A stretch of DNA of 64,000 nucleotides from Planctomycetota bacterium (GCA_046290465.1 JBKAGP010000001.1:2400001-2464000), one strand, 5' to 3'; shown: positions 36,788 to 52,886, counted from the first letter of the stretch. Notes: generated from the sequence alone by a model not told the origin. Numbers and translations: made by a program.

Positions 36788-38236
36788 ATGCAGAGATCGC
36801 TGACCCGTTGTCTCGCCGCCCTGTCGCTCTGCGGCGCAGTGTCGGCCCAGAACGCCGTCGTCGTGCCGCTGTCGCAGGGACCCGACGCGGCCCGCCGCGC
36901 CACCTCGCTCGCGGTCGTCGGCGGCGACGCACTGGTCGGCGGCCAGCTGGTCGGTCCGACCTTCGACGCCGCCCTGTGGCGCATCGATGCGACCACCCAG
37001 GCGATCGCGACGCAGGGCTTCCCGGTGCCCGGCGGCGCGTCGGTGATGGCGGTCTCGTCGGACGGCACCCGCGTCGGCATCACCGACACGCTGAGCTTCA
37101 GTTCGTGGGCCGATCCCGCCAACCCGACGCTGCAGCCGATCGGCGTCGCCGCGCTGACCGCGATCGAACGGATCGGACCCGAGACGCGCGCCACCGGCTT
37201 CACCCACGTCGGCTTCACGACGCCGAAGTTCTATTCGAGCATGGGCCTGTTCGGCGGCTGGCAGACCCTGGCCGGTAACCAGGGCAACTTCCGCCAACCC
37301 CGTGCGATCAGCGCGTCGGGCAGCCGCGTGCTGGCGGGCGACCTCTACTGGAACTACGGCGGCAGCGGCTACGGCGTCGGCATCGACGTGCCGGGCAACG
37401 ACGACGCCGAGCACCTGTCGCCGGACGGCCGCGAGTGGGTCGGCTTCGGCAGCCGGCCGTTCCCGTTCCCGAACTTCGGCGGCGTGAACTACACGTGCAT
37501 CTGGAGCGAGGACCACGGCCTGCGCCGGACGTTCCTGCGCATGCCGGACGCCAGCTTGGCGGTGGCGCTCGGCCAACGCATCACCGACGACCGGACCGTC
37601 GGCGGCAGGCTGACGCTGCCGGGTGGGATCGAGGCCGGCATGATCTGGCACCCGAGCATGGGCAGCCTCTACCCGCAGCGCTTCGACGACTTCGTCGCGA
37701 GCCACGGCGGCCCGGCGATCGCGCCGGTCTCGTCGCTGCTGGGCATGGTCGACGACGGCACCCACCTGCACTTCCTGTTCGAGGACGCGAGCGCGCAAGA
37801 CCCCGAATACCACTACGTGCGCACGCCGAACTTCTCGACGCCGGCGAGCCCGTTCTCGGTCTACGGCACCGGCCGGGGCGACGAGCCGTTCTTGCCGCCG
37901 CACCTCTACGGCGAGGTCGACACCGGCACCGGCGGCCCCGGCGACACGGTGACGTTCCACGCTGCCGAGATCGAGTCGCCGAACCTGCCGTTCGGCGTGA
38001 TCGCGTTCGCCACGGCGGCCGTCGGGACCCCGGCGCTGCTGGTCGACCCGCAGGCGCTGATCACGACCGAGCTGGTCACGCTGACGCAGCCGCAGAGCCT
38101 CGCTCAGGACCACGGCAGCTACCAGTGGACGATTCCGGCCGGCACCAGCGGGCTGTCGCTGTTCGCGCAATACGTCGGCTTCGGCACCACCAGCGAGCTG
38201 GTGTTCAGCAACGGCCTGCGGCTCGACATCCAGTAG
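36788..38236 (+). CDS. Secreted hypothetical protein with shared C-terminal domain
   Basis: AAGGAGGAG RBS, signal peptide ending VSAQ, SSDG/SASG/SPDG propeller-like repeats, ends FSNGLRLDIQ. Confidence 0.85.
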   Translation: MQRSLTRCLAALSLCGAVSAQNAVVVPLSQGPDAARRATSLAVVGGDALVGGQLVGPTFDAALWRIDATTQAIATQGFPVPGGASVMAVSSDGTRVGITDTLSFSSWADPANPTLQPIGVAALTAIERIGPETRATGFTHVGFTTPKFYSSMGLFGGWQTLAGNQGNFRQPRAISASGSRVLAGDLYWNYGGSGYGVGIDVPGNDDAEHLSPDGREWVGFGSRPFPFPNFGGVNYTCIWSEDHGLRRTFLRMPDASLAVALGQRITDDRTVGGRLTLPGGIEAGMIWHPSMGSLYPQRFDDFVASHGGPAIAPVSSLLGMVDDGTHLHFLFEDASAQDPEYHYVRTPNFSTPASPFSVYGTGRGDEPFLPPHLYGEVDTGTGGPGDTVTFHAAEIESPNLPFGVIAFATAAVGTPALLVDPQALITTELVTLTQPQSLAQDHGSYQWTIPAGTSGLSLFAQYVGFGTTSELVFSNGLRLDIQ

Positions 38237-39495: not shown

Positions 39496-39566
39496 CGATC
39501 TGCAACGGCACTGCGATCTGCAACGGCACGGCGATCCACGACGGCGCTACGATCAACGACGGCGCA
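39495..39566. repeat. 18-bp tandem repeat, four degenerate copies
   Basis: gcgatctgcaacggcact / gcgatctgcaacggcacg / gcgatccacgacggcgct / acgatcaacgacggcgca. Confidence 0.85.
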
Positions 39567-40191
39567 CCGTCGCGGCACCGATCGCGGCGAACGCGCAGCC
39601 GAGCAGCACCGTGAACGCCATCCAGAAGCACAGCTGCGCCTTGGTCAGCATCCAGATGCGCGCGTCGGCGTCCATGCCGGCGAGCTCTTCCGGGACCTTG
39701 CCGTAGTGCGTCTGCCAGCCGTTCTGGATGTCGAGGTACTGGATCAGCATCACCGGCACGCGCGCCAGCATCCAGTAGGCCACCATCGCGACGAACGCGC
39801 GCGGCCAGACGAACAGCGCCAGCAGCGACAGCACCGGCGCACCGAGCATCACGTAGCCCATCGCCTCGACCAGCTGCTCGCCTTCGAAGTAGTTGTTGAC
39901 CGAAACGATCGACGCCATCAGCACCGAGAAGCCGAACATCGGCACGAAGAAGCCGGCGACGAACTTCGGCGCGCCGCCCCCCTGGGCGAGCCGGCGCCCG
40001 AACAGCAGGCCGGCCACCGGCACCAGCCATACGATGCCGAACGGGTTCATCGGGCTGCCCGCGTCGGTCGAGAACCAGGTCGGGTTCCACCCCTGCAGTT
40101 CGCCGACGAGGCGCACGACGGTGACGACCAGCGTCAACACGCCGAACACGAGCAGCATCGGCAGCACCCTCGGGCGATAGTCGTCGGCCAT
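39553..40191 (-). CDS. Hypothetical integral membrane protein
   Basis: About 6 TM segments; GW.THYG loop. Confidence 0.8.
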   Translation of the reverse strand: MADDYRPRVLPMLLVFGVLTLVVTVVRLVGELQGWNPTWFSTDAGSPMNPFGIVWLVPVAGLLFGRRLAQGGGAPKFVAGFFVPMFGFSVLMASIVSVNNYFEGEQLVEAMGYVMLGAPVLSLLALFVWPRAFVAMVAYWMLARVPVMLIQYLDIQNGWQTHYGKVPEELAGMDADARIWMLTKAQLCFWMAFTVLLGCAFAAIGAATVRRR

Positions 40192-40343
40192 GCGCGCATC
40201 GTGCCGTGGCGCCGTCGCCATACAACCTTAGGTCGCCTCAGGGCCGCTGGGATCCGATCCGACCGTGTCTCGCGGAGGCAATTCGAACGGCAGGACGGAA
40301 CCTCGGTGCGCTGGGCGGACGTCGGCTCTGTTGGAGGTTTCCA

Positions 40344-40697
40344 ATGGCAAACCGGTTCGAAGTCGTGCTCGAGCACGACGACACGTTCCTCTTCCAGCTG
40401 CGCACCAAGGACGGCGACGTCGTGCTGCGCGGTCTGGGCAGCCCGAGCAAGATCATGACGCAGAACGAGATCTTGCACCTACGCAACTCGCTGCGCGACG
40501 ACGCACGGCGGGTCCCGCACGAGAGTGCGGACGGCGAGCACTTCCTCGTGATCAAGGATCGCGACGGATCGGTCCTCGCCAAGAGCCCGAGGGTCGCCTC
40601 GAAGGAGGCCCTCGAGGGGCTCGAACAACGCATCCTCGACGCCTGCGGCGCGCCGATCGTCGACCTGACGAAGCGCAGCCGTTCGGCGGCCGGATGA
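40344..40697 (+). CDS. YegP/DUF1508-like protein (divergent)
   Basis: GGAGG RBS, two F.L...DG.V....SK half-repeats, ends IVDLT. Confidence 0.7.
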   Translation: MANRFEVVLEHDDTFLFQLRTKDGDVVLRGLGSPSKIMTQNEILHLRNSLRDDARRVPHESADGEHFLVIKDRDGSVLAKSPRVASKEALEGLEQRILDACGAPIVDLTKRSRSAAG

Positions 40698-40713: not shown

Positions 40714-41469
40714 TCAGCGGCGCAGCGCCGACAGGGCTCGACCGAGCCCGTCGGCCATGCGCACCCCGTGCCAGCAGAAGTCCCGCCCGTCACACAGCAC
40801 GATCGGGACGTCTTCGAACACCCGCGCCGCGGCGAGCTCGTCGCGCTGCGCCTCGTCGAACGCCCACGGCTCGCTCGCGAGCAACACGCGTTCGACGCCG
40901 CGTGACAACGCGTCGCGCGGATCCATCGCCGGATAGCGATCGTGCGCATCGGCGGCGACGCTGTGCGCTCCGCACAGCTTGAGCACGTCGTGCACGAACG
41001 TGTCCGCGCCGATCGTCATCCACGGCTTGCGCCAGATCGCGTAGTAGACGCGCAGCGGCCGCCGATCCAACGCGTCGACCTCGGCCGCCGCGATCCGCGC
41101 CTCGATCCGCAGCAAGAACGGCTCGGCCGCGTCGAGCCGATCGAGACGCGTCGCCAGCACGCGCAGGTCGTTGGCCGCTTCGACCACCGAACGCGGCGTC
41201 TGCACCAGCGTCGGCACGCGCGCCGCCAGCTGCTCGAGGTCCTCGGCGCGGTTCTCCTCGGCGTTGCCGAGCACCAGGTCCGGCTCCAGCGCCAGGATCG
41301 CCGGCAGGTCCGGGTTCTTGGTGCCGCCGATGCGCGGCACGTGTGCGAGGTGGGCCGCCGGCTCGGTGCAGTACCGCGTGCAGCCGACCAGCCGGTCGGT
41401 CGCACCGAGTTCGCAGACCGACTCGGTGGTGCTGGGGACCAGGCTGACGATCCGCTGCGGCGCGCTCAT
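40714..41469 (-). CDS. BtuF-like helical-backbone (cobalamin/Fe) binding protein
   Basis: RIVSLVPSTTE, VGCTRYC, IGGTKNP, EEN, IWRKPWMT, SEPW.F, WHG. No signal peptide. Confidence 0.88.
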   Translation of the reverse strand: MSAPQRIVSLVPSTTESVCELGATDRLVGCTRYCTEPAAHLAHVPRIGGTKNPDLPAILALEPDLVLGNAEENRAEDLEQLAARVPTLVQTPRSVVEAANDLRVLATRLDRLDAAEPFLLRIEARIAAAEVDALDRRPLRVYYAIWRKPWMTIGADTFVHDVLKLCGAHSVAADAHDRYPAMDPRDALSRGVERVLLASEPWAFDEAQRDELAAARVFEDVPIVLCDGRDFCWHGVRMADGLGRALSALRR

Positions 41470-42248
41470 CGCGGCCGCGGCCCGCCGCGGAACGCGCGCG
41501 GCACGAACCGCCACCAGCCGAGCCCGTACCAACGCTGCAGCGTGCGGCGGTCGATCGTGTGCGCGTGCAGCGGCATGCCGTCGCCGTCGGCGTGCTCGGT
41601 GCCGATCGGGCACGCCTTGCGCGAACCGCAGCCGGTCTCGCAGCCACCGTCGTCGCGATGGCTCGCGCAGCGCTCGCGGTCGGCGCGACCGAGGTCGACG
41701 TGCACCTTGGGCGGGCACGCCTCGACGCACGGACGGTCGCACGTGCAGCACGGCTTGAAGCGATCGGTGATCGACGCATCGTCGACCTGCCCGAACGGCC
41801 GCCCCTCGATCAGCAGCGCGGCGCGCACCCGCAGCCACGGACCGTAGGTCGGGTTGAGCAGCATGCCGGAGACCGGCGAGACGATGCCGAAGCCGGCCGC
41901 CTCGGCGAGCCTGCCGAAGTTCAGTCGCGGCCAGCGCGCGTCGACCTTGGTCCAGCGCAGGCCCGCCTGCTCGAGTTCGTCGGCGACCGCGTCGACCGAG
42001 CTGGCGACCAGCTCCTCGACCTCTTCGCAGGTCGGACGTTCGGACAGCCCGCGGCCCTGGCGCTGGAACTCCAGCCAGAACGACTGCCCCGCCGTGCCGA
42101 GCACGAGGATCGTGCCGCAGCCCGGCAGCACGGAGGTGCTGCGCTGTTCACAGGGCTGGCAGCCGTCGAACCGCTGCGCATCGACGAGACCGAACAGGTT
42201 CAGGCCGTTGCGCGCGGCCCGCTGTTGCAGGGGACCGAGCAGGGACAT
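41466..42248 (-). CDS. QueG/CblC-like 4Fe-4S protein
   Basis: LAEAAGFG, NPTYGPWLRVRAAL, CCTCDRPCVEACP, C..GC.SR.ACP. ATGA overlap with the BtuF-like gene. Confidence 0.75.
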   Translation of the reverse strand: MSLLGPLQQRAARNGLNLFGLVDAQRFDGCQPCEQRSTSVLPGCGTILVLGTAGQSFWLEFQRQGRGLSERPTCEEVEELVASSVDAVADELEQAGLRWTKVDARWPRLNFGRLAEAAGFGIVSPVSGMLLNPTYGPWLRVRAALLIEGRPFGQVDDASITDRFKPCCTCDRPCVEACPPKVHVDLGRADRERCASHRDDGGCETGCGSRKACPIGTEHADGDGMPLHAHTIDRRTLQRWYGLGWWRFVPRAFRGGPRPR

Positions 42249-42329
42249 GGGAAACCGCACAAGGGCGAAGGCACCCGTGTTTTCGGACGAGAGCCCCGCC
42301 GGAGCAACCCCTTGCCCCGACCGGGGCGC

Positions 42330-42492
42330 GCCGGTACCGTGCGAAAGCTCCTCACGGGGAAGTCCGGTGTGAATCCGGCGCTGTCCCGCAGCTGTATCCG
42401 GGGACGAACGTCCATCAGCCACTGGCGACGCCGCGTCGGCAAGCCGGGAAGGCGGACCAGTAGGTCGATCCGGGAGCCAGAACATCCGCGTC
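42330..42492 (+). ncRNA. Cobalamin (B12) riboswitch
   Basis: GGGAA-gtccGGTGtgAATCCggcgCTGtCCcGCAgCTGT, GCCACTG...GGGAAGG and B12-box GAGCCAGAA, in canonical order. Boundaries approximate. Confidence 0.92.
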
Positions 42493-42710
42493 GAGCCGGT
42501 CTCATCGAGGCCGCCATCGCCATTCCTTCGCGGCGCGCAAGACGCCCGGTTGGCTCATGACCCACGGACTCCGAGGCCGCGCTGCGTGCGCGTGCCGCTG
42601 GCTGCTGGTGCCCCGCGCGGGCACCGCGTGGGCGCATTCCTCCAGCGAAGGCAGGCACCCCCGGTCGCCCGCGCGACCTGCCGCGCCCATCCGGCGCGCT
42701 GCGTGATCGC

Positions 42711-44015
42711 ATGCTTCGCTCCCCCATCCTGCTGCTGGCCGCCACCGCGGGCATCTGCCTTCCCGCCCAACAGGTCGCCGATGGCTACGCCCAGACCACC
42801 GCGACGCTGCCCGCCGGCGCCGGCAGCTTCCTCGAGACCACCTTCGGAACGGTCTACTTCGACGGCTTCGACCTGATGCTCGATCCGGGCACCGGCGGCA
42901 CGTCGCTGCTGACGTTCCCGTCGTTCACGTTCGGGTCGTTCTCGGCGCCGATCGGCGCCACCGAGGTGCTGTTCGGCGAGAGCAGCAACGGCGGCATCTG
43001 GACCGTGCCGCTCAACGGCCTGCCGGCGCAGCTGGTCGCCAACGTGCCGTTCAACTACGACGCCGTGCTGCTCGACGACGACCGTGCGCTGGTGTCGGCC
43101 AAGACCGGCGGCTTCTCGGCGCCGGACAACGACGTGATGTTCGTCGACCTGCTGACCGGCCAGACCCAGCTGCTCGCCCAGTTCCCCGGCGCATCGGGTC
43201 CGCTCGCGATCGACGCCAACGGCGACGTCTACTACGCGACCTCGCCGGCGGTCTTCCCGGCCCCCGCCGGCACCGTCGAGGTGCTGCGGCTGCCGCGCGC
43301 GGTCGTCGATCTCGCCATCAGCAACCAGACGGTGCTCGGCGTCGCCGACGCGACCGTGGTGATCGCGGGCCTCGACGCCGCTGGTGACCTGGCGTTCGAC
43401 GACGACGGCGACCTGTTCTTCGTCGACTGGTTCAACGGCACCATCGGCGAAGTCGACGGCGCCGACGGCGGCCAGGCGACGCTGGCGCCGACGCTGATCG
43501 ACTACGCCGGCACCGGCCTGAGCGGCAGCGTGCTGCAGTTCGCGCCGACCGCGGCGCCGGTGCCGCAGGTGTTCGAGCCGTTCCAGCCGGCCGGCGCCGC
43601 GCTGCTGGTCCACGAGACCGACTACGTCAGCATCAGCCAGGTCCGCAGCCTGGTCGCGGCCCCGCCGCAGCTGTCGGCCTCGGCCGCATCGCCGATCCCG
43701 GCCGGGGTCTTCACGCTCGACACCACCGGCGGCCCGGCCACCGGCCTCGGCCTCTTGCTGTTCGCCCCGGCGACCGGCCTCGGCCCGGTGACGCTGTCCG
43801 TGCCGGGCTTCGAGCAGCCGCTGTTCGTCGACGGCGCGCTGGCGCCGGCCCCGGTGATCCTGCCGATCAGCTTCGATGCCGCCGGCCACGCCTCGTTCCC
43901 GGTCACCAATCCGGGCTTCGCCCAGGCCTTCGATGCCATCGCGCAGACGGTCGTCGTGTCGACCTCGGGCGCGATCGGCGCGAGCGCCGCGCTGCCGCTG
44001 CAAGTCGGGCAGTAG
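42711..44015 (+). CDS. Secreted beta-propeller-like protein with shared C-terminal domain, downstream of the B12 riboswitch
   Basis: Signal peptide ending LPAQ, GPLAIDANGDVYY and GDLAFDDDGDLFF blades, ends SAALPLQVGQ. Confidence 0.85.
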   Translation: MLRSPILLLAATAGICLPAQQVADGYAQTTATLPAGAGSFLETTFGTVYFDGFDLMLDPGTGGTSLLTFPSFTFGSFSAPIGATEVLFGESSNGGIWTVPLNGLPAQLVANVPFNYDAVLLDDDRALVSAKTGGFSAPDNDVMFVDLLTGQTQLLAQFPGASGPLAIDANGDVYYATSPAVFPAPAGTVEVLRLPRAVVDLAISNQTVLGVADATVVIAGLDAAGDLAFDDDGDLFFVDWFNGTIGEVDGADGGQATLAPTLIDYAGTGLSGSVLQFAPTAAPVPQVFEPFQPAGAALLVHETDYVSISQVRSLVAAPPQLSASAASPIPAGVFTLDTTGGPATGLGLLLFAPATGLGPVTLSVPGFEQPLFVDGALAPAPVILPISFDAAGHASFPVTNPGFAQAFDAIAQTVVVSTSGAIGASAALPLQVGQ

Positions 44016-44132
44016 GAGGGCGTTCGCACCAAGCCCGTCGCGGTGCACAGCTGTTACAGCGACTATCTGTCGGCAAACCCGGGGGGTGGACGTAATGGCG
44101 CACCGTGGCCCGGGCGGGCCGCCCACTACGCA

Positions 44133-47100
44133 ATGCAAAAGCAAACCGTCGTCCTCCTGCTGGTCGCGCTCGTCGCGATCGCCGCCGGAGCCCTCCTCGT
44201 CCCCAAGATGTTCGACGAGTCCCCCGCTCCGGTCATGCACTGGGACACCGAGGACGAGGTCGAAGGGGCCGAAGAGCAGCAGGCCGATCCCGGCGCCACC
44301 GAGACGGCGGCATTCGAACGCACCGAGGCCGAACTGTCGCCGACGGTCGCGCCGGTCTCCAACGAGCCGCGCGTCGACGCGATCCTGCGCGGCCGGGTGG
44401 TCGACAAGTTCAACGCGCCGGTCGCCAACGCCAAGGTCTGGCTCGAGATCGGCCGCAGCCGCCAGCAGAACGGCGGCCAGCCCGGCCGCGGCGGGCGCGA
44501 CCGCGGCGGCCGCGGCGGTGGCCGCTCGCGACGCATCCCGGAGCCGGTCATCACCAACGCCGAGGGCCTGTTCGCCTTCCAGGGTGAGACGTTCCGCAAC
44601 CTGCGCGTGACGCTGCAGGTCAAGAGCAACCAGCATGCGGTCGGCCTGTTCGAGAAGGACGTCGGCGACATCCAGGCCGGCCAGGCGGCCGCGGCCGAGA
44701 TCGAGGTCGCGCTCGGCGACCTGGCGCTGAAGTCCGGTGGCCTGGTCCGCGGCCGCGTCACCGACCTCGACGGCAACGCCGTCATCGGTGCCGAGGTCAC
44801 GATGGAGCCGGACTTCCGCAACCGCCTGCGCTGGCAGCGCAACCGCACCGAACTGCTGCCGCCCACCAAGACCGACGCCAACGGCTTCTACGCCTACGCC
44901 AACGTGCCGGAGGGGCAGTTCGCCGTGACGGTGCTCGCCAAGATGCACACGCCCGGTCGCTCGGACGGCTTCGAGGTCACCGAGGACGCCGAGGTCCAGG
45001 TGCCCGACATCGCGCTCGGTCCTGGCTACGAGGTCACCGGCTACGTCAAGGACGCGCAGGGTGAGCCGATCGCCAAGGCCAACGTGCGCCTGCGCGCCTC
45101 GCTGAGCGCCAACGCCCAGCCGGCCGAAGGGCGCGGCGGCGACCGCGGCGGGCGTGGCCGCGGCCGCGGCCGGGGCGGCTTCGGCGGCTTCGGCGGCCGC
45201 GACCACCGCACCGAGACCGACGAGCAGGGGCGCTTCTTCCTGGAGCACCTGCCGAGTTCGCTGATGGAGATCCAGGTCGACGCGCGCGGCTTCCTCGACT
45301 ACGAGGCCGACGAGATCGACCCGAAGGTCGTGCGCCCGATCTACGTGACGCTGCAGCCCGGCCTCTACATCGCCGGCATCGTGCAGACGCCGGACGGCCT
45401 GCCGCTGACCAAGTACTCGGTCCGCACGCGCCGCCTGCGCGGCCTGCCGGACCCGAACCAGCCGCAGGTCGACTTCAACGAACTGATGGCCAAGTTCCGC
45501 GACCCGAACCTCACCGACGAGGGGCGCCGCGAGCTGATGCGCACGATGCGCGACGTTCGCGACCAGTTCACCAGCCAGTTCCGAGGCCGCGGCGGCGACC
45601 GGGGTGGCCGTGGCGGCGACCGCGGCGACCGCGGCGGCGACCGCGGTGGCCGCGGTGGCGACCGCGGTGGCCGCAACGACCGTCAGGAACAGCACGACGG
45701 CGGCCGCTTCCGCGAGGACGGGCTGCAGGAGGGCGTCTACGAGGTCACCATCGAGGCGGACAACTACGCGCGCTTCACCTCGGCCGAGATCCAGGTGCGC
45801 CGCGACGCCGCGCCGCCGGAGCTGACCATCACGGTCGACCCGGGCGTCTACGTCGGCGGGGTCGTGCTCGACGCCTACGGCGATCCGATCGCCAACGCCG
45901 AGGTCACGCTGCGCTCGGCCACGCTCGACGACAACACCCCGCCGACCATCCCGGGCGGCGGCCGCGGTGGCCGCGGCGGTCGCGGCGGCTTCGACGTCAA
46001 CCGCATGGCCCGCGACTGGATGCGCGGCATGAACAGCTCGCCGCTGCGGCTGACCGCCCGCACCGACCAGGACGGCCTGTTCATCGTCAAGAACGTGCAG
46101 CGCGGTGTCTACTCGCTCAGCGCCACGGCCGACAACTTCGCCACGGCGAACGTCGAGCCGTTCCAGCTCGATCGCGAACGTTCGGACTTCGAGATGCGCC
46201 TCGATCCGCTCGGCGTGATCGTCGGCAAGGTGACCGGCTTCCGCCCCGAAGAGGCCGGTGAGGTGCAGGTCATCGCGCTGCTCGTTCCCGAGGACGGCAA
46301 CATCATGGGCTCGCTGATGCGCGGCGGCATGCGCGGTCGCGGTGGCCGCGGCGGCGGCCGTGGCGGCAGCACGTTCCGCAACGTCAACATCGAAGCCGAC
46401 GGCAGCTACCGCATCGAAGGCCTGTCGGCGGGCGACTACTTCGTGCGCAGCGCCACCGGCGGCATGCGCGACATGATGCGCATGTTCGGCTCGACCGCCA
46501 TGAACGGCACGATGGCCGCGGACGTCACCGTGCGCCCCGGCACCGAGTCGCGCTGGGACATGCAGATGACCCGACCGCAGTACGGCGTCGTCGCCGGCAC
46601 CGTGATGCACAACGGCGAGAGCGCCGCGGGCTTCCGCGTCGAGCTGCGTCGCCAGGACAACAACCCCGGCAACGGTGGCGGCCAGCAGCCGGGCGGCATG
46701 TTCGGCCGGATGATGAACTTCGGCCGCAGCCAGTCGGACACGGTCGAGAAGGACGGCACGTTCGAGGTCAAGGACGTCACCGCCGGCCTCTACCGGCTGC
46801 GGGTCACCGCCGGCCGCCGCGGCGGCGTGCTCTACGAGGAGCAGGTGCAGGTGGTCGCCGACGTGACCCTGCAGCGCAACCTGTCGCTGACGACCGGCTC
46901 GGTGAAGGGCTCGATCACGACCGACGACGGCACCGACCCGAAGGCGATCGGTGGCCGCATCTCGCTGGTCCAGGGCCTGATCGAGATCCCCGAGGACCTC
47001 AACCGCTACCTGCGCGAGAACACGTCGTTCGACGCGCGGATCCGCGACGGCGCGTTCGAGATCGAGTCGATCCCGCCCGGCACCTACATGCTGATCTTCC

Positions 47101-47210
47101 AGGCGCGCAACCGCGAGCGGACCACGCAGACCGTCGTCGTCAGCGGCACCGAGAACATCACCGTGCCCGCAGGCAAGGCGACGCCCCAAAACGGCGGCGC
47201 GCCGAAGTAG
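44133..47210 (+). CDS. Membrane-anchored carboxypeptidase-regulatory-like (Ig-like) repeat protein with RGG inserts
   Basis: N-terminal TM, repeated G.V.D..G.P..A.V...TD..G.F units, several RGG(D) tracts. Confidence 0.88.
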   Translation: MQKQTVVLLLVALVAIAAGALLVPKMFDESPAPVMHWDTEDEVEGAEEQQADPGATETAAFERTEAELSPTVAPVSNEPRVDAILRGRVVDKFNAPVANAKVWLEIGRSRQQNGGQPGRGGRDRGGRGGGRSRRIPEPVITNAEGLFAFQGETFRNLRVTLQVKSNQHAVGLFEKDVGDIQAGQAAAAEIEVALGDLALKSGGLVRGRVTDLDGNAVIGAEVTMEPDFRNRLRWQRNRTELLPPTKTDANGFYAYANVPEGQFAVTVLAKMHTPGRSDGFEVTEDAEVQVPDIALGPGYEVTGYVKDAQGEPIAKANVRLRASLSANAQPAEGRGGDRGGRGRGRGRGGFGGFGGRDHRTETDEQGRFFLEHLPSSLMEIQVDARGFLDYEADEIDPKVVRPIYVTLQPGLYIAGIVQTPDGLPLTKYSVRTRRLRGLPDPNQPQVDFNELMAKFRDPNLTDEGRRELMRTMRDVRDQFTSQFRGRGGDRGGRGGDRGDRGGDRGGRGGDRGGRNDRQEQHDGGRFREDGLQEGVYEVTIEADNYARFTSAEIQVRRDAAPPELTITVDPGVYVGGVVLDAYGDPIANAEVTLRSATLDDNTPPTIPGGGRGGRGGRGGFDVNRMARDWMRGMNSSPLRLTARTDQDGLFIVKNVQRGVYSLSATADNFATANVEPFQLDRERSDFEMRLDPLGVIVGKVTGFRPEEAGEVQVIALLVPEDGNIMGSLMRGGMRGRGGRGGGRGGSTFRNVNIEADGSYRIEGLSAGDYFVRSATGGMRDMMRMFGSTAMNGTMAADVTVRPGTESRWDMQMTRPQYGVVAGTVMHNGESAAGFRVELRRQDNNPGNGGGQQPGGMFGRMMNFGRSQSDTVEKDGTFEVKDVTAGLYRLRVTAGRRGGVLYEEQVQVVADVTLQRNLSLTTGSVKGSITTDDGTDPKAIGGRISLVQGLIEIPEDLNRYLRENTSFDARIRDGAFEIESIPPGTYMLIFQARNRERTTQTVVVSGTENITVPAGKATPQNGGAPK

Positions 47211-47240: not shown

Positions 47241-48041
47241 ATCCGCACGCTCGTTTCGATCCTGATCTCCCTGCTGATCGCAGTCGCGCTCGGCACCGTG
47301 CTCTACGCGCTGGTGCTGGCGGTCGGCCGCGATCCGCTGCCCGGTGCCGAAGAGCGCTTCGTGGTCGCACCGCCGACGCAACTGCCTGCACCGACGCGGC
47401 TGGCGCCGATCCCCGGCATCGAGACGTCGCAGGTCCCCGACACCAACATCGGCGCCGTGGCGACGCGCGTGACGGTGCCGGTGCACATCTCCGACCTGCC
47501 GGAGTCGTTGCGCAACGGCACCGCCGGCGTCGCCACCTACCACACCGACACCGGCGGCGACTTCCGCTGGTATCCGCTCGACGAGGCCATCCCGGGGCAG
47601 CGCGGCGGGCTGCTGATCACCGCGCAGGCGCCGCAGGGGACCCGGCTGACCGTGACGTTCTCGGCGCGGCGCGAACACGCCCGGCGCGGCTACCTCGATC
47701 GCCACGAGTTCGAGGTCGACGCGACCGACACCGGGGCGACGCCGATCGTCGAACTCGACGGGGCGGTGCACGCCGTGCGCTTCGACCTGCCGACCGACGT
47801 CGACCAGGCCGGCCCGCTGCGGCTGCAGCGCGTCGACGACCGCCAGTGGCTGCCGATGCTGCACAGCACCGCCGGCCTCAAGCTGCGCAGCGGCACGGAG
47901 CTGACGCTGCAGCTCGGCAGCGGTGCCTACGAGCTGCAGGACCCGCTCGCGCCCGAACGCGCGCAGCGCTTCGAGGTGCCGGGCACGCCGGCGGTGACGG
48001 TCACTGCGGCGCTTCCACCGGCTCGAGACGGCCGTCTCTGA
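47241..48041 (+). CDS. Hypothetical membrane-anchored protein (start uncertain: ATC 47241 or GTG 47298)
   Basis: The hydrophobic helix begins upstream of the first canonical start; GGAG lies 8 nt before ATC. Confidence 0.65.
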   Translation: MRTLVSILISLLIAVALGTVLYALVLAVGRDPLPGAEERFVVAPPTQLPAPTRLAPIPGIETSQVPDTNIGAVATRVTVPVHISDLPESLRNGTAGVATYHTDTGGDFRWYPLDEAIPGQRGGLLITAQAPQGTRLTVTFSARREHARRGYLDRHEFEVDATDTGATPIVELDGAVHAVRFDLPTDVDQAGPLRLQRVDDRQWLPMLHSTAGLKLRSGTELTLQLGSGAYELQDPLAPERAQRFEVPGTPAVTVTAALPPARDGRL

Positions 48042-48858
48042 CCCGGAACAGCTTGCCCGAGACCGGGTGCGGGGCGCGGTCGGCCAGGTCCTCGGTCGCC
48101 GACATCAGCGCTTCGATGTTCTGCCCCTCCTCGGGGCCGGCCCACAGCGTGTCGCGGTCGGGGACCGCCACCAGCAGGCCCTCCTGCTGGTCGAGCAACA
48201 GCACGCGCGAGGCGTCGAAGCCGTCGCCCGACTGCAGCAGCACCGACTCGGCACAGGCCTCGTCGATGCCGTTGCGCCCCAGGCGGGCGAGGTTGGCCAG
48301 CGCCAGGTTGTGCAGGTCCTCGGCCGTCTTCTGCCAGCGCTGCAGGTGCGCGCGGCACAGGAACACCATGCACGAAGCGTCGTCGACGACGTAGACCGTG
48401 ACCAGCTCGTCGTTGAGCGGCGTGTGCACGAGCCCCGAGTCGCCGAACGTGCCCTGCTCGTCGAGCCAGGCGCGGCTGCGCACCTGCGGCATCAGCAGCT
48501 GCGCGGCGGTCGCGAACTCGAGGTCGTCGCAGCGATCGAGGCCGACCTCGCGGATGTCCTCGACCAGCTGGGCGACCATGCGCGGGAACGCTTCGGGAAA
48601 CGCTTCGGCGTGGCGGAATGCCTCGTGCAGGCCAACCGGGGTCTCCTGGCCGTCGACGGACAGCAGGCAGGCGAAGCGGTCGGGCAGCATGCCGAGGAAG
48701 CGGACCCGCGGGTGCGCGGCGATCAGTTCGTTCTCCAGCTGGAGCACGAACGCGGCGACCTCGGGCGGATACCGCGAGGAGCGTTGCCGCAGCCGGTGGT
48801 GCACCACCACGCCCGCGAGCGCCAACATCGACCAGCCGAGACCGACCCACAGCCACAT
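48001..48858 (-). CDS. DUF1444/YtpQ-like protein with N-terminal TM
   Basis: LMPQVR, YVVDD, ALANL, GDGFDASRVLL, VAVPDRD.L, HPVS..LF. Confidence 0.75.
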   Translation of the reverse strand: MWLWVGLGWSMLALAGVVVHHRLRQRSSRYPPEVAAFVLQLENELIAAHPRVRFLGMLPDRFACLLSVDGQETPVGLHEAFRHAEAFPEAFPRMVAQLVEDIREVGLDRCDDLEFATAAQLLMPQVRSRAWLDEQGTFGDSGLVHTPLNDELVTVYVVDDASCMVFLCRAHLQRWQKTAEDLHNLALANLARLGRNGIDEACAESVLLQSGDGFDASRVLLLDQQEGLLVAVPDRDTLWAGPEEGQNIEALMSATEDLADRAPHPVSGKLFRVRDGRLEPVEAPQ

Positions 48859-49143
48859 GCAGGCGCTATCGGCCGTTCGCGGCCGCGGCTTCAGGCCGGG
48901 CGCCCAATCGAGGCACACGCGCCGAGGCACACGCGCCGGGGCGGCGCCGTCGACGGTCTGGGGAGTGACTCCCCGGGGGGATGCCCACGCCAGGACGACT
49001 TGACGCTCCTTCCTCTGCTTGCAGAGGCTACGGACGAACTGACAAACCGACAAGTGCGAGGCACCGATTTCCGAACGCTCCCCACCACCTTGCACAAACC
49101 CTCCGGAAATCGGAGACTCTGCGCTGCCCCCACGGTGCAGAAG

Positions 49144-50877
49144 GTGACGACGACCACGCAAGAAGCCCACTTCCGGCTGCTGATCCTGGGGGACGGATCC
49201 GTCCGCACCATCCCGCTGACCGGCAGCCGGTGGACCATCGGCCGCTCGCTGGACTGCTCGATCACGCTGCGGGATCCGACCGTCAGCCGCCGCCACCTGG
49301 TGCTCGAGCGCGACGGCAACACGTTCCGCTTCCAGGACCTGGGCAGCGCCAACCCGCCGGTGCTCGACGGCCGCTCGACGCGCCAGGCGGTGCTGGCGCC
49401 GGGCCAGCAGCTGACCATCGGGCTGACGCGGCTGGTGCTCGAGGAGCGCCGCCGGCCGGCACCGATCGCCACCAACCAGGTCAGCACCGTCATCCTGTCG
49501 CGCGAGGTCATCGACGAAGAGCTGCCGCACGACGAGGACCCCGGCGCGTTCACGACGACCGCGTCCAAGGTGCTGCAGAGCATCGAGTGGACGTTCGCCG
49601 ACCTCGGCGATCTGGCCGACGCCGCCGAGCCGCTGCTCGAACTGGCGCTCAACCTGTCAGGCCGGCGCAGCGGCTGGCTGGCGCGGTTCCCGACGCCGAC
49701 CACGATCGAGACGCTGGCGGCGATCAGCGCGACCGGCACCCCGTCGGTGCCGAGCCTGCCCGAGAACGCGCTCGAAGACGCCCGGCGGATCCCCCACCCC
49801 CACCTGCTGCGAACCCGCGAGGACGAGTCCGAACGGGAACGGCTGCTGGTCCCGCTCGGGGACGCCAGCGCCGGCCTGCTGGTGCTCGAGGACCCGGTCG
49901 ACGCGGCCCCGCACGGCCAGGAGCTGCTGCGGCTCGCCCAGTCGCTGGGCAAGGTCGTCTGGCACCGCCTGCAGGAGACGATGGAGCGGCTGCGGCTCCG
50001 CGACGAACTCGAGCGGCTGCGCTTCCACGGCACCGACGCGCACAACGCGCTGCTGACCAGCGTGCGCCTGCAGGCCGCGCGCGAGCGGATCCGTTCGCGC
50101 GCCGCCGACCAGCAGGGCGTGCTGCTGATCGGCGAACCCGGCACCGAGCGCGAGGACCTCGCCCGCTTCCTGCACGCCGAGAGTGCCCGCCGCGCCGCCC
50201 CGTTCGTGGCCTGGGACGCGAGCTCCGATGCCAGCTCCGCGAGCGACCTGCTCGGCGACGACGACCAGCTCGGCGCCCTGCAGCGAGCCGCCGGCGGCAC
50301 GCTGTTCCTCGACGAGACCCCGACGATGCCGGTCAAGCTGCAGGCGCGGCTGGCGGCGGCGATCGCCAGCGACCGGCACGACGTGCGGTTGGTGATGGCG
50401 TGCTGCGAGGACGGCTCCGGCTGGTCGCCGGCGCTGCGCAAGCTGGTGACCGGCGAACCCGTGCAGATCCCGCCGCTGCGCGACGACGCGCGCGACGTGC
50501 TGGCGCTCGCCGAGCTGATCCTGTCGGGCCTCGGCACCTGCCCCGACGGCTCGCCGCGCCTGATCACCGAACGCGCCAAGCGCGTGCTGACCACGCACAG
50601 TTGGCCCGGCAACGTGCGCGAACTGCGGCTGACGCTCGAGGCGGCGGCCGCGCGCGCCGGCAACCACGCGATCGCGCCGCGCCACCTGCCGATCGACCAT
50701 GGCGGGGACGGCGCCCGCGACGCCGCGCCGCTGCCGACGCTCGAGGACGTCGAGCGCGAGCACATCCAGGAGGTCATGCGCCGCACCGGCGGCGTGCGCG
50801 CGCGCGCCGCGCAGGTGCTCGGCATCGCCAGCTCGACGCTCTACGAGAAGCTCAAGCGCTACCAGATCGACGCCTGA
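49144..50877 (+). CDS. FHA-domain Fis-family regulator with degenerate sigma-54 AAA+ domain
   Basis: FHA motifs IGRS, VSRRH, GSAN; GEPGTERE, GGTLFLDE, WPGNVREL, HTH. GAFTGA absent. Confidence 0.85.
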   Translation: MTTTTQEAHFRLLILGDGSVRTIPLTGSRWTIGRSLDCSITLRDPTVSRRHLVLERDGNTFRFQDLGSANPPVLDGRSTRQAVLAPGQQLTIGLTRLVLEERRRPAPIATNQVSTVILSREVIDEELPHDEDPGAFTTTASKVLQSIEWTFADLGDLADAAEPLLELALNLSGRRSGWLARFPTPTTIETLAAISATGTPSVPSLPENALEDARRIPHPHLLRTREDESERERLLVPLGDASAGLLVLEDPVDAAPHGQELLRLAQSLGKVVWHRLQETMERLRLRDELERLRFHGTDAHNALLTSVRLQAARERIRSRAADQQGVLLIGEPGTEREDLARFLHAESARRAAPFVAWDASSDASSASDLLGDDDQLGALQRAAGGTLFLDETPTMPVKLQARLAAAIASDRHDVRLVMACCEDGSGWSPALRKLVTGEPVQIPPLRDDARDVLALAELILSGLGTCPDGSPRLITERAKRVLTTHSWPGNVRELRLTLEAAAARAGNHAIAPRHLPIDHGGDGARDAAPLPTLEDVEREHIQEVMRRTGGVRARAAQVLGIASSTLYEKLKRYQIDA

Positions 50878-50918
50878 CGGCGCCGGCAGGTGCGATCGAT
50901 CCGCTAGGATTTCGGGCG

Positions 50919-52886
50919 ATGACCCGCCGCCTGATCCTGCTCCCGCTGCTCGCCGCGACCCTGGCCGCGCAGGAGGTCCCCGAGCGCTTCCGCGACCTCT
51001 ACGAGGACGTCAGGGACAACGCCTACATGCAGCAGCAGCTGGCGTTCCTGTTCGAGCACATGCCGCAGCAGGACCGGGAGACGCTGGCGGTCGAGACGCT
51101 GCGCGACAACGTCTTCTACGCGATCGCCGCCCGCGGCGCCCACGGCTGGGCGATGGGCGTGCCGAACGAGCTGTTCCAGAACTACGTGCTGCCCTACGCG
51201 CAGGCCGACGAGAAGCGCGAGAACTGGCGCAAGGCGATGTACGAGCGCTGCGCGCCGCTGGTCGCGGACTGCAAGACGCCGGGCGAGGCGGCGAAGGTGC
51301 TCAACGAGCAGCTCTTCGACCTCGTCGACGTGCACTACTCGACCAGGCGTCGCCGGGCGCTGCAGGCTCCCGGCGAGTCGATCGCGCAGGGTCGCGCGAC
51401 CTGCACCGGCCTGTCGATCCTGCTCGCCGACGCGTGCCGCTCGGTCGGCGTCCCCGCGCGCATCGTGTCGGTCAAGTGGCCGCACAAGGCCGGCAACCAC
51501 ACCTGGGTCGAGATCTGGGACGGCAACCGCTGGCGCTTCTGCGGCGCCGACGAGCCGGACCCGAAGGGCTTCGACCGCGCCTGGTTCGTCGGCGACGCCC
51601 GGCAGTGCGACGTCGAGGACAAGCGCAACCGGATCTACGCGGTCTCGTTCGCGAACACGGGCACGACGTTCGTACCGGGCTGGAGCGCGACCACGCTGTC
51701 GGGCACCGACGTCACCTGGCGCTACGACGGCACCCTGCCCAACGACACCAACGCGCCGCTGCTGGCGCAGCTCGGCCGCTACTTCGGCAGCGAGCCGCGC
51801 CGCCAGCGCGAGTTCGAGTTCGACCGCAACCTCGACGAAGAGCTGCGCACCCGAGCCGGTGACGCGCGGCTGCGCGCGCTGGTGTGGCGCGCGCTGCGGG
51901 AGTTCGAGCACGCGTCGCTGCGCGAGGGCCACGCCGACGGCCGGCTGCAGGTCGCGGGCAAGACCACGACGTTCGCGCTGCGCGAGGTCGGCGAGGAGCC
52001 CGACGGCGGCTGGCCACTCGTGATCACGCTGCTCGGCGATGGCAAAGCGGAGGCAGGCTACTTCCACGACGCACCGAAGGCCGGCGGCTACCTGCGCTGC
52101 GACCTGCAGGCGCCCGAGGACCGCGACGCAATCGCGCCGACCATCGAGCGGCTGATCCGGCAGTGCGTGATCTGCAGCGGCGTCGATCCGGGCCGCGTGG
52201 TCCTCGTCGGCCACGGCGCCGGCGGCGACGCGGCGATCCTCGCGGCGACGCGGATCCCGCACCGCTTCGCTGCGGTGCACGCCAGCGCCGCCGCCCCCCG
52301 ACTCGAACGAGGGGCCGCGCTCAGCCTGCACTCCCTGCCGCTGACGCTGGTGACCAGCGCCGAAGACACCACCGAACGGTTGGCCCGCACCCGCACGCTG
52401 CGCGACGAGCTGGCAAAGCTGCGCGCCATGTTCGAAGGGGAGGAGCCGAAGCTGTGGACCGCCGCGGTCACGCTGGTCGACGGCCGAGACCGGCGCGACC
52501 TCGGAGATCGGGACATGCTCGCGAAGCTCGTCTCGGCCCGCCGCGGCGCCATGCGCAACCCGCCGGCGATGCTCGCGGGGCCGCACGCGCAGCACCACTA
52601 CAACCTGCACGTCGAGACCACCGCGTCCGGCGTGCGCATCGAGTCCACCGTGGCCGACGGCATGTGGACCTTCCGTCCGTCGCAAGCCGCTGCGGTATCC
52701 GGCTGGTTCGACGCCCGCACCCTCGACCTGTCGCGGCCGTTCTCGTTCGTCGACGAGTCCGAACGGCCGTCCGGGCACTACGGGCCGCGCGACCCGAGCC
52801 CGTCGCTGCGGGTGCTCTGCGCGACGATGCAGCAGGTCGGCGATCCCTGGCTGGCCGCGACCTGGATCCCGCGCAAGATCCCGTAG
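50919..52886 (+). CDS. Secreted transglutaminase-like protein fused to a degenerate alpha/beta-hydrolase fold
   Basis: F.NYVLPY...E.RE.WR, ATCTGLSILL, NHTWVE; GHGAGG in place of GxSxG. Confidence 0.85.
   Translation: MTRRLILLPLLAATLAAQEVPERFRDLYEDVRDNAYMQQQLAFLFEHMPQQDRETLAVETLRDNVFYAIAARGAHGWAMGVPNELFQNYVLPYAQADEKRENWRKAMYERCAPLVADCKTPGEAAKVLNEQLFDLVDVHYSTRRRRALQAPGESIAQGRATCTGLSILLADACRSVGVPARIVSVKWPHKAGNHTWVEIWDGNRWRFCGADEPDPKGFDRAWFVGDARQCDVEDKRNRIYAVSFANTGTTFVPGWSATTLSGTDVTWRYDGTLPNDTNAPLLAQLGRYFGSEPRRQREFEFDRNLDEELRTRAGDARLRALVWRALREFEHASLREGHADGRLQVAGKTTTFALREVGEEPDGGWPLVITLLGDGKAEAGYFHDAPKAGGYLRCDLQAPEDRDAIAPTIERLIRQCVICSGVDPGRVVLVGHGAGGDAAILAATRIPHRFAAVHASAAAPRLERGAALSLHSLPLTLVTSAEDTTERLARTRTLRDELAKLRAMFEGEEPKLWTAAVTLVDGRDRRDLGDRDMLAKLVSARRGAMRNPPAMLAGPHAQHHYNLHVETTASGVRIESTVADGMWTFRPSQAAAVSGWFDARTLDLSRPFSFVDESERPSGHYGPRDPSPSLRVLCATMQQVGDPWLAATWIPRKIP

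Follow-up and report, generated by a model that had tools for sequence, protein, structure and literature searches.

What does the cobalamin riboswitch at this locus control, and how might its target serve the B12 economy of the host, an uncultured marine planctomycete with a single-contig genome that is 94% complete by markers? The window, that is, the whole 64,000-nucleotide stretch analysed here, had been assigned a cobalamin riboswitch at 42330..42492 on the plus strand by a first-pass annotation. Consistent with this, cmscan places an RF00174 aptamer inside that interval at 42356..42487 (+), covering model positions 45-169 with a score of 77.7 bits (E 2e-17; gathering score 31.5). Rfam matches nothing else in the window, and across the 6.59-Mb genome RF00174 recurs just once. 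Both its score above the gathering cut-off and its conserved position in a same-strand 5' leader identify it as a member of the family. From the aptamer to the start codon, the leader runs for 223 nt (42488..42710, +), and the corresponding gap in 44 related loci ranges from 66 to 259 nt, with a median of about 128. We searched this leader for an intrinsic terminator or a sigma-70 consensus and found neither, and its minimum-energy fold is uninformative (z 0.27). A 207-nt contig from run X20, taken to be RNA by guess, spans 42364-42569 only.

The riboswitch heads a three-gene operon that encodes an exported-looking acidic propeller, a membrane-anchored repeat protein and a 247-aa protein. The first gene (42711..44015, +) specifies 434 aa, and its earlier description as acidic, secreted and propeller-like is borne out, with secretion read from the N-terminal pattern. 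Residues 20-434 contain 38 Asp and Glu versus 5 Lys and Arg, corresponding to a pI of 4.05 within a family range of 4.05-5.04, and the mature part contains zero cysteines. At the N-terminus, a basic residue is followed by a hydrophobic stretch that leads into PAQQ, an arrangement that is kept in 36 aligned homologues and gives the protein a secreted-looking character. Cys16 is not conserved in the alignment, nor is there any other conserved lipobox cysteine. The exported-looking N-terminus, cysteine-free mature part and low pI fit what would be expected of a capture protein. The claim that the protein bears a shared C-terminal tag fared less well: what visual inspection shows in three proteins of the window amounts to no more than a short terminal motif, and a profile of the C-terminal 116 residues searched against the six-frame ORFs of the genome returned only itself and one weak match (E 0.004).

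If the protein has a role in B12 physiology, its association with the riboswitch might be expected to recur in relatives, a check that had been proposed for homologues of this gene. Of the 62 loci, 61 have RF00174 upstream of the gene on its own strand, which amounts to fewer than 61 independent events because the genomes are kin. These comprise 44 of 45 loci with 40-69% propeller protein identity, all three loci in which the propeller is linked to cobT and cobS, and 14/14 distant loci from families f2 and f8; the lone miss, locus L003, has just 261 nt of DNA before the propeller gene. The riboswitch-propeller pairing is conserved throughout the class. At six loci no conserved gene other than the propeller follows the switch, and in most of the f2 loci the propeller likewise stands by itself, without either downstream gene; 11 of the 45 closer loci carry a tandem propeller paralogue. 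No transporter gene lies consistently beside the propeller, either in those 45 loci or in the 14 distant ones. In a class sample of 201 genomes, the propeller family is present in 142 and CobS in 22; in four of the 22 CobS-positive genomes no more than about 2.5 kb separates cobS from the propeller gene, and the order in the three such loci that were read is riboswitch, propeller, cobT, cobS. With the same switch in front of it in nearly every relative, the propeller is, from sequence comparison, a strong candidate for a new mode of B12 capture.

The architecture of the protein is predicted with good confidence. An AlphaFold2 model (pLDDT 91.1, pTM 0.87) comprises a six-bladed propeller at residues ~22-317, within which DSSP assigns 23 strands (residues 26-316), followed by a beta-sandwich at 320-434. 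VIA-align superposes the model on six-bladed propellers with Z of 21-23 over 236-275 residues, including the NHL-derived Pizza6 (240 of 251 residues, rmsd 2.6, Z 22). Scans of Pfam (E <= 0.01) and NCBIfam assigned the protein to no family. At E <= 0.1, a profile of the 36 homologues matched only designed NHL-type Pizza proteins in the PDB, with Pizza6 at 4e-8, and the structure neighbours in the Atlas belong to the NHL and SGL families. Modelled fold and repeat signature together thus indicate a six-bladed propeller of NHL/SGL type. No structural match stands out; the best are six-bladed propellers of a generic kind, many being enzymes. One could suppose that the protein is an exported, calcium-dependent NHL/SGL-type hydrolase or lactonase that, under B12 starvation, frees or remodels extracellular corrinoids present in complexes, analogues or detritus. 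The closest folds at Z 21-23 include SMP-30/gluconolactonase, DFPase, lactonases, PQQ sugar dehydrogenases and strictosidine synthase, phmmer finds weak DFPase matches (E 0.011), Atlas structure rows are named SGL/gluconolactonase, and Asp or Asn is invariant at N115, D117, N140, D230, D234 and D239. Linkage to cobT-cobS in some genomes would also suit corrinoid remodelling. However, no enzyme family model in Pfam or NCBIfam matches the propeller, the sequence-level PDB matches are confined to the designed Pizza proteins, which are non-enzymes, and we know of no exported corrinoid-remodelling enzyme. We regard an enzymatic role as distinctly unlikely.

The structural comparison suggested beforehand was with BtuG of Bacteroides thetaiotaomicron, a surface lipoprotein with a seven-bladed propeller that caps BtuB and whose family we take to be Pfam DUF5074. 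Like BtuG, the planctomycete protein is an exported-looking beta-propeller whose gene follows a cobalamin riboswitch in an organism auxotrophic for B12, and by analogy the strongly negative surface and corrinoid capture outside the cytoplasm may be common to both. Descent from a common ancestor finds no backing: we rejected the protein as a BtuG homologue, since neither Pfam nor a profile search of the PDB gave a match to that family. BtuG is also not among the best 50 matches listed by Foldseek or VIA-align, absence from such a list being no test of kinship. Unlike BtuG, the modelled propeller has six blades of NHL/SGL type and an additional C-terminal beta-sandwich, lacks a conserved lipobox cysteine, has no TonB-dependent receptor beside it (in the window or among the Pfam-scanned neighbours at 14 loci) and comes from a different phylum. 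A second point of reference is provided by BtuK1, BtuK2 and BtuH2, lipoproteins of Bacteroides B12 operons in which PKD or Ig-like domains are combined with a propeller or a B12-binding domain. The planctomycete protein resembles these in pairing such a domain with an Ig-like one within a B12 operon. They differ from it in being lipoproteins of Bacteroidota, and BtuK has a propeller of seven blades preceded by its Ig-like domain, with no homology to the present propeller detected. Excerpts of PMC13616437 report that the negative surface of BtuG attracts B12, cite PDB 8BMZ as an example of its structure, and describe BtuK1 and BtuK2 as tandem paralogues, an arrangement reminiscent of the tandem propeller genes noted above.

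Whether the host has a use for such a protein depends on its own B12 metabolism. We looked for CobS and CbiC in the genome and found neither, yet the genome encodes the B12 users MetH, methylmalonyl-CoA mutase, an IcmF-like MeaB/B12 protein, three B12-radical-SAM proteins and QueG, indicating that the host needs imported B12. The transporters available are one FecCD-type ABC system and four TonB-dependent receptors, none of which is riboswitch-controlled. As the first-pass annotation had stated, btuB and btuCD are missing from the window (2400001-2464000): all FecCD and TonB-receptor matches in the genome fall outside it, and the sole FecCD system is 1.67 Mb away. We lean slightly towards the reading that this planctomycete, auxotrophic for corrinoids, uses the operon under B12 starvation, with the propeller capturing corrinoid and the divergently transcribed pair described below processing it. 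A role of the operon in acquiring corrinoids, broadly understood, is probable, and we put the chance that the propeller itself binds corrinoid at about even. Under this starvation model, plentiful intracellular (adenosyl)cobalamin would bind the aptamer and turn the operon off, and scarcity of B12 would allow its expression. The propeller would then act like BtuG and BtuK of Bacteroides, binding corrinoids on the cell surface or within the periplasm, and would feed the FecCD-type ABC system and the TonB-dependent receptors. B12 riboswitches are also known to govern B12-independent isoenzymes, metE and nrdAB being repressed in this way, and the operon could by the same token replace a B12-dependent function. 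Such a role is extremely improbable, given that all three operon products look exported or membrane-anchored, that no enzyme family is matched, that the pairing with cobT-cobS does not fit, and that, to our knowledge, there is no extracytoplasmic B12-dependent enzyme that would need replacing.

The two downstream genes of the operon, at 44043-47210 and 47298-48041, were absent from the first-pass annotation. Gene 2 (44043..47210, +) encodes a protein of ~1025-1055 aa with one N-terminal membrane-spanning segment, the only hydrophobic segment being at residues 29-47, and tandem CarboxypepD_reg (transthyretin-like) beta-sandwich domains, matched by PF13620 in five stretches (E 6e-51). It follows the propeller gene in 33 of the 43 loci that have at least 600 nt of downstream DNA. 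Two contigs from metatranscriptome run X19, at 44315-44552 and 45027-45263, lie in gene 2 and are a weak sign of its transcription. Gene 3 (47298..48041, +), present as one copy in the genome, encodes the 247-aa protein, for which Pfam and NCBIfam scans gave no match and the Atlas offered only CarboxypepD_reg-like leads (scores 0.88-0.92); among the 33 loci whose downstream DNA extends for 4300 nt or more, 21 carry it. In this lineage, the membrane-anchored repeat protein may hold or present the propeller. The same parts could instead build a surface structure with which the B12-starved cell attaches to or attacks B12 producers or B12-rich partners, for example algae-associated bacteria, the propeller and repeat protein themselves being non-binding. 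The anchored Ig-/transthyretin-like chain of gene 2 gives a weak match to a model for an anammox S-layer glycoprotein (40.7 bits; cut-off 1400), NHL/YVTN propellers occur with Ig domains in surface layers, and the top Foldseek match of the propeller is 1l0q, an archaeal S-layer propeller with a PKD domain. Near-identical DNA also occurs in runs labelled as algae, aquaculture, coral and marine metagenomes, although these habitat labels are coded and are no proof of partnership. However, the propeller dispenses with both genes in the six loci and most f2 loci mentioned above, and the cobT-cobS linkage points to the cofactor itself; we therefore give a surface structure of this kind only a slim chance.

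On the other side of the riboswitch, two genes are transcribed divergently from it. The nearer (41466..42248, -) encodes a 260-aa cytoplasmic protein with a predicted CblC/QueG/RdhA-type cobalamin-binding fold. Its earlier assignment as a QueG/CblC-like Fe-S gene stands as regards the fold, but not as regards a longer ORF reaching 42485, an unlikely start because homologues begin at MSLL. CblC (MMACHC) is a eukaryotic cobalamin decyanase and dealkylase that is without Fe-S clusters and uses flavin or glutathione. A profile of the Fe-S family matches QueG (9e-5), MMACHC (0.02) and NpRdhA (0.04) in the PDB, and among the matches listed by Foldseek at E <= 1e-3 are only QueG (4e-9), MMACHC/CblC (2e-6) and NpRdhA (5e-4), with an rmsd of 3.5 over 181 columns to MMACHC. 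These comparisons place the modelled core in the CblC/QueG/RdhA superfamily; the model has a pLDDT of 78, with the Cys-rich part below 50. About eight cysteines are conserved (positions 167/168, 170, 174, 178, 194, 203, 207 and 213), enough for two predicted [4Fe-4S] clusters as in QueG and RdhA, although no Fer4 model matched in a Pfam scan. The protein resembles QueG and the reductive dehalogenases in its predicted cobalamin-binding core, behind which lies a ferredoxin-like segment that may carry two clusters, and QueG is its best match by both profile and fold. With CblC it appears to share the modified nitroreductase-like fold and, by analogy, the proposed job of reductively processing incoming cobalamin; it differs in its conserved cysteines, and profile E-values of 0.02-0.04 are borderline. 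The best-conserved motif of the family, HPxFGPWxRxR, aligns with MMACHC 151-161, including Trp157 and Arg161 of the ligand pocket, within a local alignment that spans MMACHC 145-169; the role of Arg161 in the pocket is described in an excerpt of PMC9464900.

It had been asked whether the protein might simply be the tRNA epoxyqueuosine reductase with non-conserved linkage. We rejected its identification as QueG, as it scores 18 bits on TIGR00276 against a cut-off of 200 and lacks the HEAT-like tRNA-binding domain, and the true QueG is encoded elsewhere in the genome (C1:5799200-5800204, 290.6 bits). In the 385-aa QueG, the HEAT-like RNA-binding domain occupies residues 257-385 (~130 aa), according to part of PMC5175355. 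The 260-aa protein has neither a C-terminal helical domain nor any added substrate domain, and is, judged by its sequence, a distinct family apart from QueG. Its linkage is conserved: 32 of 45 loci have the gene in divergent orientation no more than 600 nt from the riboswitch, as do 29 of the 39 that have at least 900 nt upstream. The family was seen in families f1 and f5 only, and in 0/109 f2 genomes. A wider search at E <= 1e-10 gathered 604 cluster representatives, and in P0378, a distant member, a PF02310 B12-binding domain is found at the C-terminus.

The second divergent gene (40714..41469, -) overlaps the Fe-S gene in ATGA, and the annotation of it as a signal-less, BtuF-like gene coupled in this way proved sound. 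Lacking a signal peptide, the 251-aa product opens directly with the first strand of its binding-protein fold; it matches the TroA-like/Peripla_BP_2 domain (PF01497 at 2.4e-22, 80 bits; NF038402 at 1.2e-50, 172 bits). Its nearest solved structures are E. coli BtuF (about 6e-13) and then haem binders. It shares this fold with BtuF, the periplasmic component of BtuCD-F, but differs in being signal-less, in having invariant cysteines (Cys34 and Cys226 in the family alignment) and in having no btuCD beside the gene. We rejected BtuF itself as an assignment, the equivalog model NF002894 giving 64.6 bits against a cut-off of 234, with no signal peptide and no BtuCD partner. The gene is present in 17 of 45 loci, or in 16 of 35 where upstream DNA suffices. 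Since the downstream genes and the divergent pair are absent from many loci, they are non-essential to the role of the propeller.

According to the starvation model, the Fe-S protein would strip upper ligands reductively or reduce the cobalt of the imported cofactor, and the BtuF-like protein would hold the corrinoid; that the pair forms such a processing and holding module we put a little short of even. For the pair only, the Fe-S protein could instead be a reductase that depends on cobalamin and acts on a separate substrate, its BtuF-like partner loading the cofactor or binding the substrate, and the genes lying beside the riboswitch only because they consume B12. In its nearest folds, QueG and RdhA, cobalamin is the catalytic cofactor alongside two [4Fe-4S] clusters (excerpt of PMC5175355), the size of the wider family suggests a general enzyme, and the pair, being transcribed away from the riboswitch, would be outside its control. 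Against a reductase stand the lack of any QueG-like HEAT-like or substrate domain (260 versus 385 aa), the correspondence of the HPxFGPWxRxR motif to the MMACHC ligand-pocket region, in which Trp157 and Arg161 lie (role of Arg161 in part of PMC9464900), and the tight divergent linkage to an operon of B12-uptake type; we consider this alternative somewhat unlikely. Of the original proposal, a corrinoid-scavenging protein with an adjacent reduction and chaperone module, the predictions that sequence could address came out as stated, the likeness to BtuG did not, and the pair turned out to be lineage-restricted.

The second RF00174 of the genome precedes another secreted-looking acidic protein, of 344 aa and no named family. 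Members of its family have a same-strand riboswitch in 21 of 23 loci, and the gene lies beside the propeller gene in at least 11 genomes. This raises a broader, though unlikely, reading in which this uncultured class of Planctomycetota has its own complete route for corrinoid acquisition and trafficking, unrelated to BtuB-BtuG and made up of two exported capture proteins, a repeat-protein relay and the cytoplasmic Fe-S/BtuF-like pair. The six-bladed propeller and the non-homologous 344-aa protein, both riboswitch-controlled, would capture corrinoids, and the membrane-anchored transthyretin-like chain would relay them across the envelope. If true, the CblC-like Fe-S enzyme and its BtuF-like holder would be the first bacterial counterpart of eukaryotic CblC/CblD processing.

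The host genome is a single contig of 6,594,045 bp with a G+C content of 70.6%, and is 94% complete as judged by marker genes; the window spans its positions 2400001-2464000. The only Rfam family matched within the window is the cobalamin riboswitch RF00174, located on the forward strand at 42356-42487 (77.7 bits against a gathering score of 31.5, E 2e-17). The open reading frame of a 434-aa protein, referred to here as the propeller (42711-44015, +), starts 223 nt 3' of the riboswitch and is followed on the same strand by two further genes. Gene 2 (44043-47210, +) encodes a protein of ~1025-1055 aa in which a single hydrophobic segment lies near the N-terminus and CarboxypepD_reg is scored in five stretches, and gene 3 (47298-48041, +) encodes a 247-aa protein without a Pfam or NCBIfam family, for which an Atlas search gave only leads scoring 0.88-0.92. 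Divergent from the riboswitch are a gene for a cysteine-rich, 260-aa Fe-S protein (41466-42248, -) and a gene for a 251-aa BtuF-like protein with a Peripla_BP_2/TroA-like domain (40714-41469, -), the stop codon of the former overlapping the start codon of the latter as ATGA. The leader showed neither a terminator nor a promoter consensus, and the minimum-energy fold of 42330-42730 was no better than those of shuffled sequences. The first-pass annotation had described a riboswitch ahead of an acidic 434-aa reading frame, divergent Fe-S and BtuF-like genes coupled by ATGA, and a window free of btuB and btuCD. Since the genes are laid out as claimed, and every genomic match to FecCD or a TonB receptor falls outside the window, this description is correct, with the exception of a C-terminal tag that the propeller was said to share with other proteins. 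A profile of residues 319-434 searched against all six-frame open reading frames of the genome recovered itself and one match at E 0.004, and tblastn found one stretch, 34% identical, so the tag does not form a detectable domain family. By eye only, the C-termini encoded at 36788-38236 (+), 25339-27270 (+) and 42711-44015 (+) end in a similar alternating-hydrophobic strand (…LRLDIQ, …LAITIGN and …LPLQVGQ, respectively), and all three proteins look exported.

A word-indexed search, in which 8000 candidates were scored, returned 201 relatives of the propeller. The 120 relatives listed are mostly ~435 aa long, have no Pfam domain, and are called "hypothetical protein" where they are named at all; the public relatives carry the label of Planctomycetota MAGs. 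At 45 loci from species-representative genomes, at 40-69% identity to the propeller, RF00174 lies upstream of the homologue on the same strand in 44, and at the one exception (locus L003) merely 261 nt of contig precede the propeller gene. The gap from the end of the aptamer to the first gene is 66-259 nt. That first gene is a tandem propeller paralogue in 11 of the 45 loci, and in six the propeller is the sole cluster gene retained. Gene 2 is present in 33 of 43 informative loci and gene 3 in 21 of 33, and both are lineage-specific additions. We then sampled 201 genomes of the class, whose families are designated by f and a number. At a threshold of E <= 1e-20 the propeller family is present in 142 of these, including 38/39 in f1, 95/109 in f2 and 0/35 in f3. 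A same-strand upstream riboswitch was found at all 14 distant f2/f8 loci and at 3/3 further f2 loci, giving a total of 61 of 62 loci in which the propeller homologue is riboswitch-preceded, the repeated association that the first-pass annotation had put forward for checking. Because the genomes are kin, the pairing represents conservation over a deep clade and not 61 independent events. No transporter gene was found beside the propeller in the 45 loci (tblastn with the window proteins) or in the 14 distant loci (Pfam on neighbours). At six of the 14 distant f2 loci (L096, L097, L101, L102, L104 and L106), the riboswitch-propeller unit is immediately preceded by a CvpA (Colicin_V production) gene, an adjacency that we take as lineage synteny.

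Searches of Pfam and NCBIfam assigned the propeller to no family. At its N-terminus a basic residue is followed by a hydrophobic stretch and the motif PAQQ, a pattern common to 36 aligned homologues, from which we infer that the protein is exported. Invariant polar residues of the propeller include N115, D117, S129, N140, Y175, D230, D234 and D239. Residues 20-434 contain 38 acidic and 5 basic residues and zero cysteine, with a pI of 4.05, and the 36 homologues span a pI range of 4.05-5.04. An AlphaFold2 model built from the family alignment (pLDDT 91.1, pTM 0.87) matches six-bladed propellers over residues ~22-317 with Z of 21-23 (Foldseek, VIA-align), whereas residues 320-434 form a beta-sandwich. 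Among the matches listed are PQQ sugar dehydrogenases, SMP-30-type lactonases, NHL domains, strictosidine synthase and the designed protein Pizza6, none of which ranks clearly above the others; the best Foldseek match to the model is an archaeal S-layer protein combining a propeller with PKD. The family profile searched against PDB recovered only the NHL-derived Pizza proteins (4e-8), and neighbours in the Atlas are NHL, SGL or YVTN propellers or else unnamed planctomycete clusters. From these fold and profile matches the protein is predicted to be a six-bladed propeller of the NHL/SGL type and not kin of the seven-bladed BtuG. BtuG and BtuK are absent among the 50 matches listed by Foldseek and by VIA-align, which does not address distant likeness.

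Most microbes that require B12 are unable to make it. CobS and CbiC had no match in the host genome. The host encodes MetH, methylmalonyl-CoA mutase and a MeaB/B12-binding IcmF-like protein, together with three B12-binding radical-SAM proteins and two further proteins with B12-binding domains. Because CobS and CbiC are absent while B12-using proteins are present, the host relies on imported corrinoid. The only Meth_synt_2 (MetE-type) match is at C1:686967-688088 (locus L065; C1 denotes the host genome), with a low score of 108.7 bits and an in-frame TGA. For transport, the host has four TonB-dependent receptors and a single ABC transporter of the FecCD type. The latter, together with its ATPase and Peripla_BP_2 binding protein, is located at C1:4104471-4111575 (L058), and a CarboxypepD_reg protein of 572 aa is encoded ~2 kb away. 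None of these transporters or receptors is riboswitch-controlled, since the genome carries only two copies of RF00174. The second copy, at C1:775531-775707 (74.3 bits), lies ahead of the gene for an acidic protein of 344 aa that looks exported (pI 4.30; locus C1:775531-777561, L002 and L069) and has neither a Pfam family nor a relative in PDB. The family of this protein is present in 48/201 class genomes, and at 21 of 23 loci its gene follows a riboswitch on the same strand; at the other two, the switch faces propeller genes. At least 11 genomes have it next to propeller genes, and in sampled genome G080 the order is riboswitch, 344-aa protein, propeller. A DUF71/Dph6-like gene that follows the 344-aa protein was dropped as a partner because it is kept in only 2/23 loci.

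CobS is found in just 22/201 class genomes, and in 4 of these 22 cobS lies within ~2.5 kb of a propeller gene. In the three of these loci that were read, all of them in f2 (L066, G093:C53; L067, G052:C189; L068, G181:C137), the riboswitch is followed by propeller, cobT (DBI_PRT) and cobS in that order, which is a direct operon link between the propeller family and the enzymes of lower-ligand attachment. The most economical reading of the locus is a B12-starvation operon whose first product would capture corrinoids outside the cytoplasm, because the riboswitch is near-universal, the host is auxotrophic, its B12 regulon consists of exported unknown proteins only, cobT and cobS are occasionally fused to the operon, and the propeller is acidic, cysteine-free and apparently exported. 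BtuG and BtuK (PMC13616437) are analogues of such a protein. According to this model, the operon would be expressed under B12 starvation, the propeller would bind corrinoids outside the cytoplasm, and the membrane-anchored repeat protein of gene 2 and the 247-aa protein of gene 3 may tether or relay it. That the propeller is instead an enzyme is a live rival, because its fold is common to many enzymes. Binding, location, regulation and chemistry are all inferred, and we regard the locus as a candidate system, assembled from unrelated parts, for capturing corrinoids outside the cytoplasm under riboswitch control. A literature search, covering titles and abstract openings outside the subscription journals, returned nothing on the propeller family, on any six-bladed protein that binds B12, or on a bacterial enzyme resembling CblC and carrying Fe-S.

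The Fe-S protein scores 18 bits against the QueG equivalog, for which the cut-off is 200, and a true QueG is encoded elsewhere in the host genome; it is therefore not the tRNA epoxyqueuosine reductase, the identity that, with non-conserved linkage, the first-pass annotation had named as refuting its proposal. Its homologues form a tight family of ~260 aa, some of them mislabelled "epoxyqueuosine reductase". The family profile matches QueG (9e-5), MMACHC/CblC (0.02-0.04) and NpRdhA (0.04) in PDB. An AlphaFold2 model (pLDDT 78, with the cysteine-rich part below 50) gave Foldseek matches, listed at E <= 1e-3, to QueG (4e-9), MMACHC (2e-6) and NpRdhA (5e-4), with PceA-type dehalogenases next, just above 1e-3. 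About eight cysteines are conserved (167/168, 170, 174, 178, 194, 203, 207 and 213), enough that they could hold two predicted [4Fe-4S] clusters in QueG-like fashion. QueG, as PMC5175355 describes it, has a HEAT-like RNA-binding domain, which the Fe-S protein lacks. The best-conserved motif of the family aligns to MMACHC 145-169, including Trp157 and Arg161, and PMC9464900 places Arg161 in the lining of the pocket above the upper ligand. The Fe-S gene is divergent from and no more than 600 nt from the riboswitch in 32/45 loci, and 36 loci have it at some position. Only f1 (33/39) and f5 (7/7) contain the family, with 0/109 in f2. At E <= 1e-10 an exhaustive profile search recovered 604 cluster representatives, almost all of them 230-280 aa long. 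Of 12 more distant members searched against Pfam, 10 have no family at E <= 0.01 and one has a weak, sub-threshold Fer4_6 match; ten distant clusters are named "hypothetical protein" or nothing at all. The last of the 12 members, P0378 (366 aa), has a C-terminal PF02310 B12-binding domain (E 1.5e-8), a single case that may be a gene-call fusion.

Among solved structures, the BtuF-like protein is closest to E. coli BtuF (~6e-13), with haem binders behind, and it scores far under the BtuF equivalog cut-off. It has no signal peptide and contains invariant cysteines, and its gene is present in 17/45 loci, or 16 of the 35 whose upstream DNA is long enough. The two divergent proteins plausibly constitute a cytoplasmic module for corrinoid processing and holding; they might just as well be a B12-dependent reductase that acts on a substrate of its own. 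As a compact Fe-S relative of human CblC, the Fe-S protein could reveal how bacteria strip and reduce scavenged cobalamins. The BtuF-like gene is faced by a small convergent gene at 40206-40697 (+), which encodes ~117 aa counted from the methionine at residue 47 and which tblastn shows to be conserved at 13 related loci; its product may be a tandem YegP/DUF1508-type protein. Beyond the BtuF-like gene in 6/45 loci is a gene (39553-40221, -) whose product, a membrane protein of 222 aa, has five hydrophobic segments and matches no family. On the other side of the cluster, 48067-52886 (+) contains two long overlapping frames, one with a transglutaminase core at residues 759-852 and the other presumably ending like the C-terminus of a sigma-54 activator with its HTH.

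To our knowledge, the proteins that seize B12 from the environment are largely unknown beyond Proteobacteria and gut Bacteroides. The present families would provide candidates for B12 capture from a whole uncultured class, in which the propeller family is found in 142/201 genomes against 22/201 for CobS and the B12 switch precedes unannotated exported proteins, as well as two soluble candidate proteins for a new B12-binding fold. Near-identical locus DNA was found in 20 run rows, nine of which contain at least half of the sampled words, and the runs are labelled, among others, as algae (possibly the source sample), aquaculture, marine and coral metagenomes. Because of these labels the system may bear on competition for B12 around algae, which we offer as a lead only. 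In the metatranscriptome X19, two contigs of ~240 nt fall within gene 2. Run X20, whose status as RNA is a guess, has one contig in gene 2 and a 207-nt contig at 42364-42569 that covers only the aptamer and the beginning of the leader, and that would fit a terminated leader transcript, though contigs cannot show ends. Lack of cover in X19 and X20 elsewhere along the stretch is uninformative, and these short contigs are no more than weak signs that the locus is transcribed.
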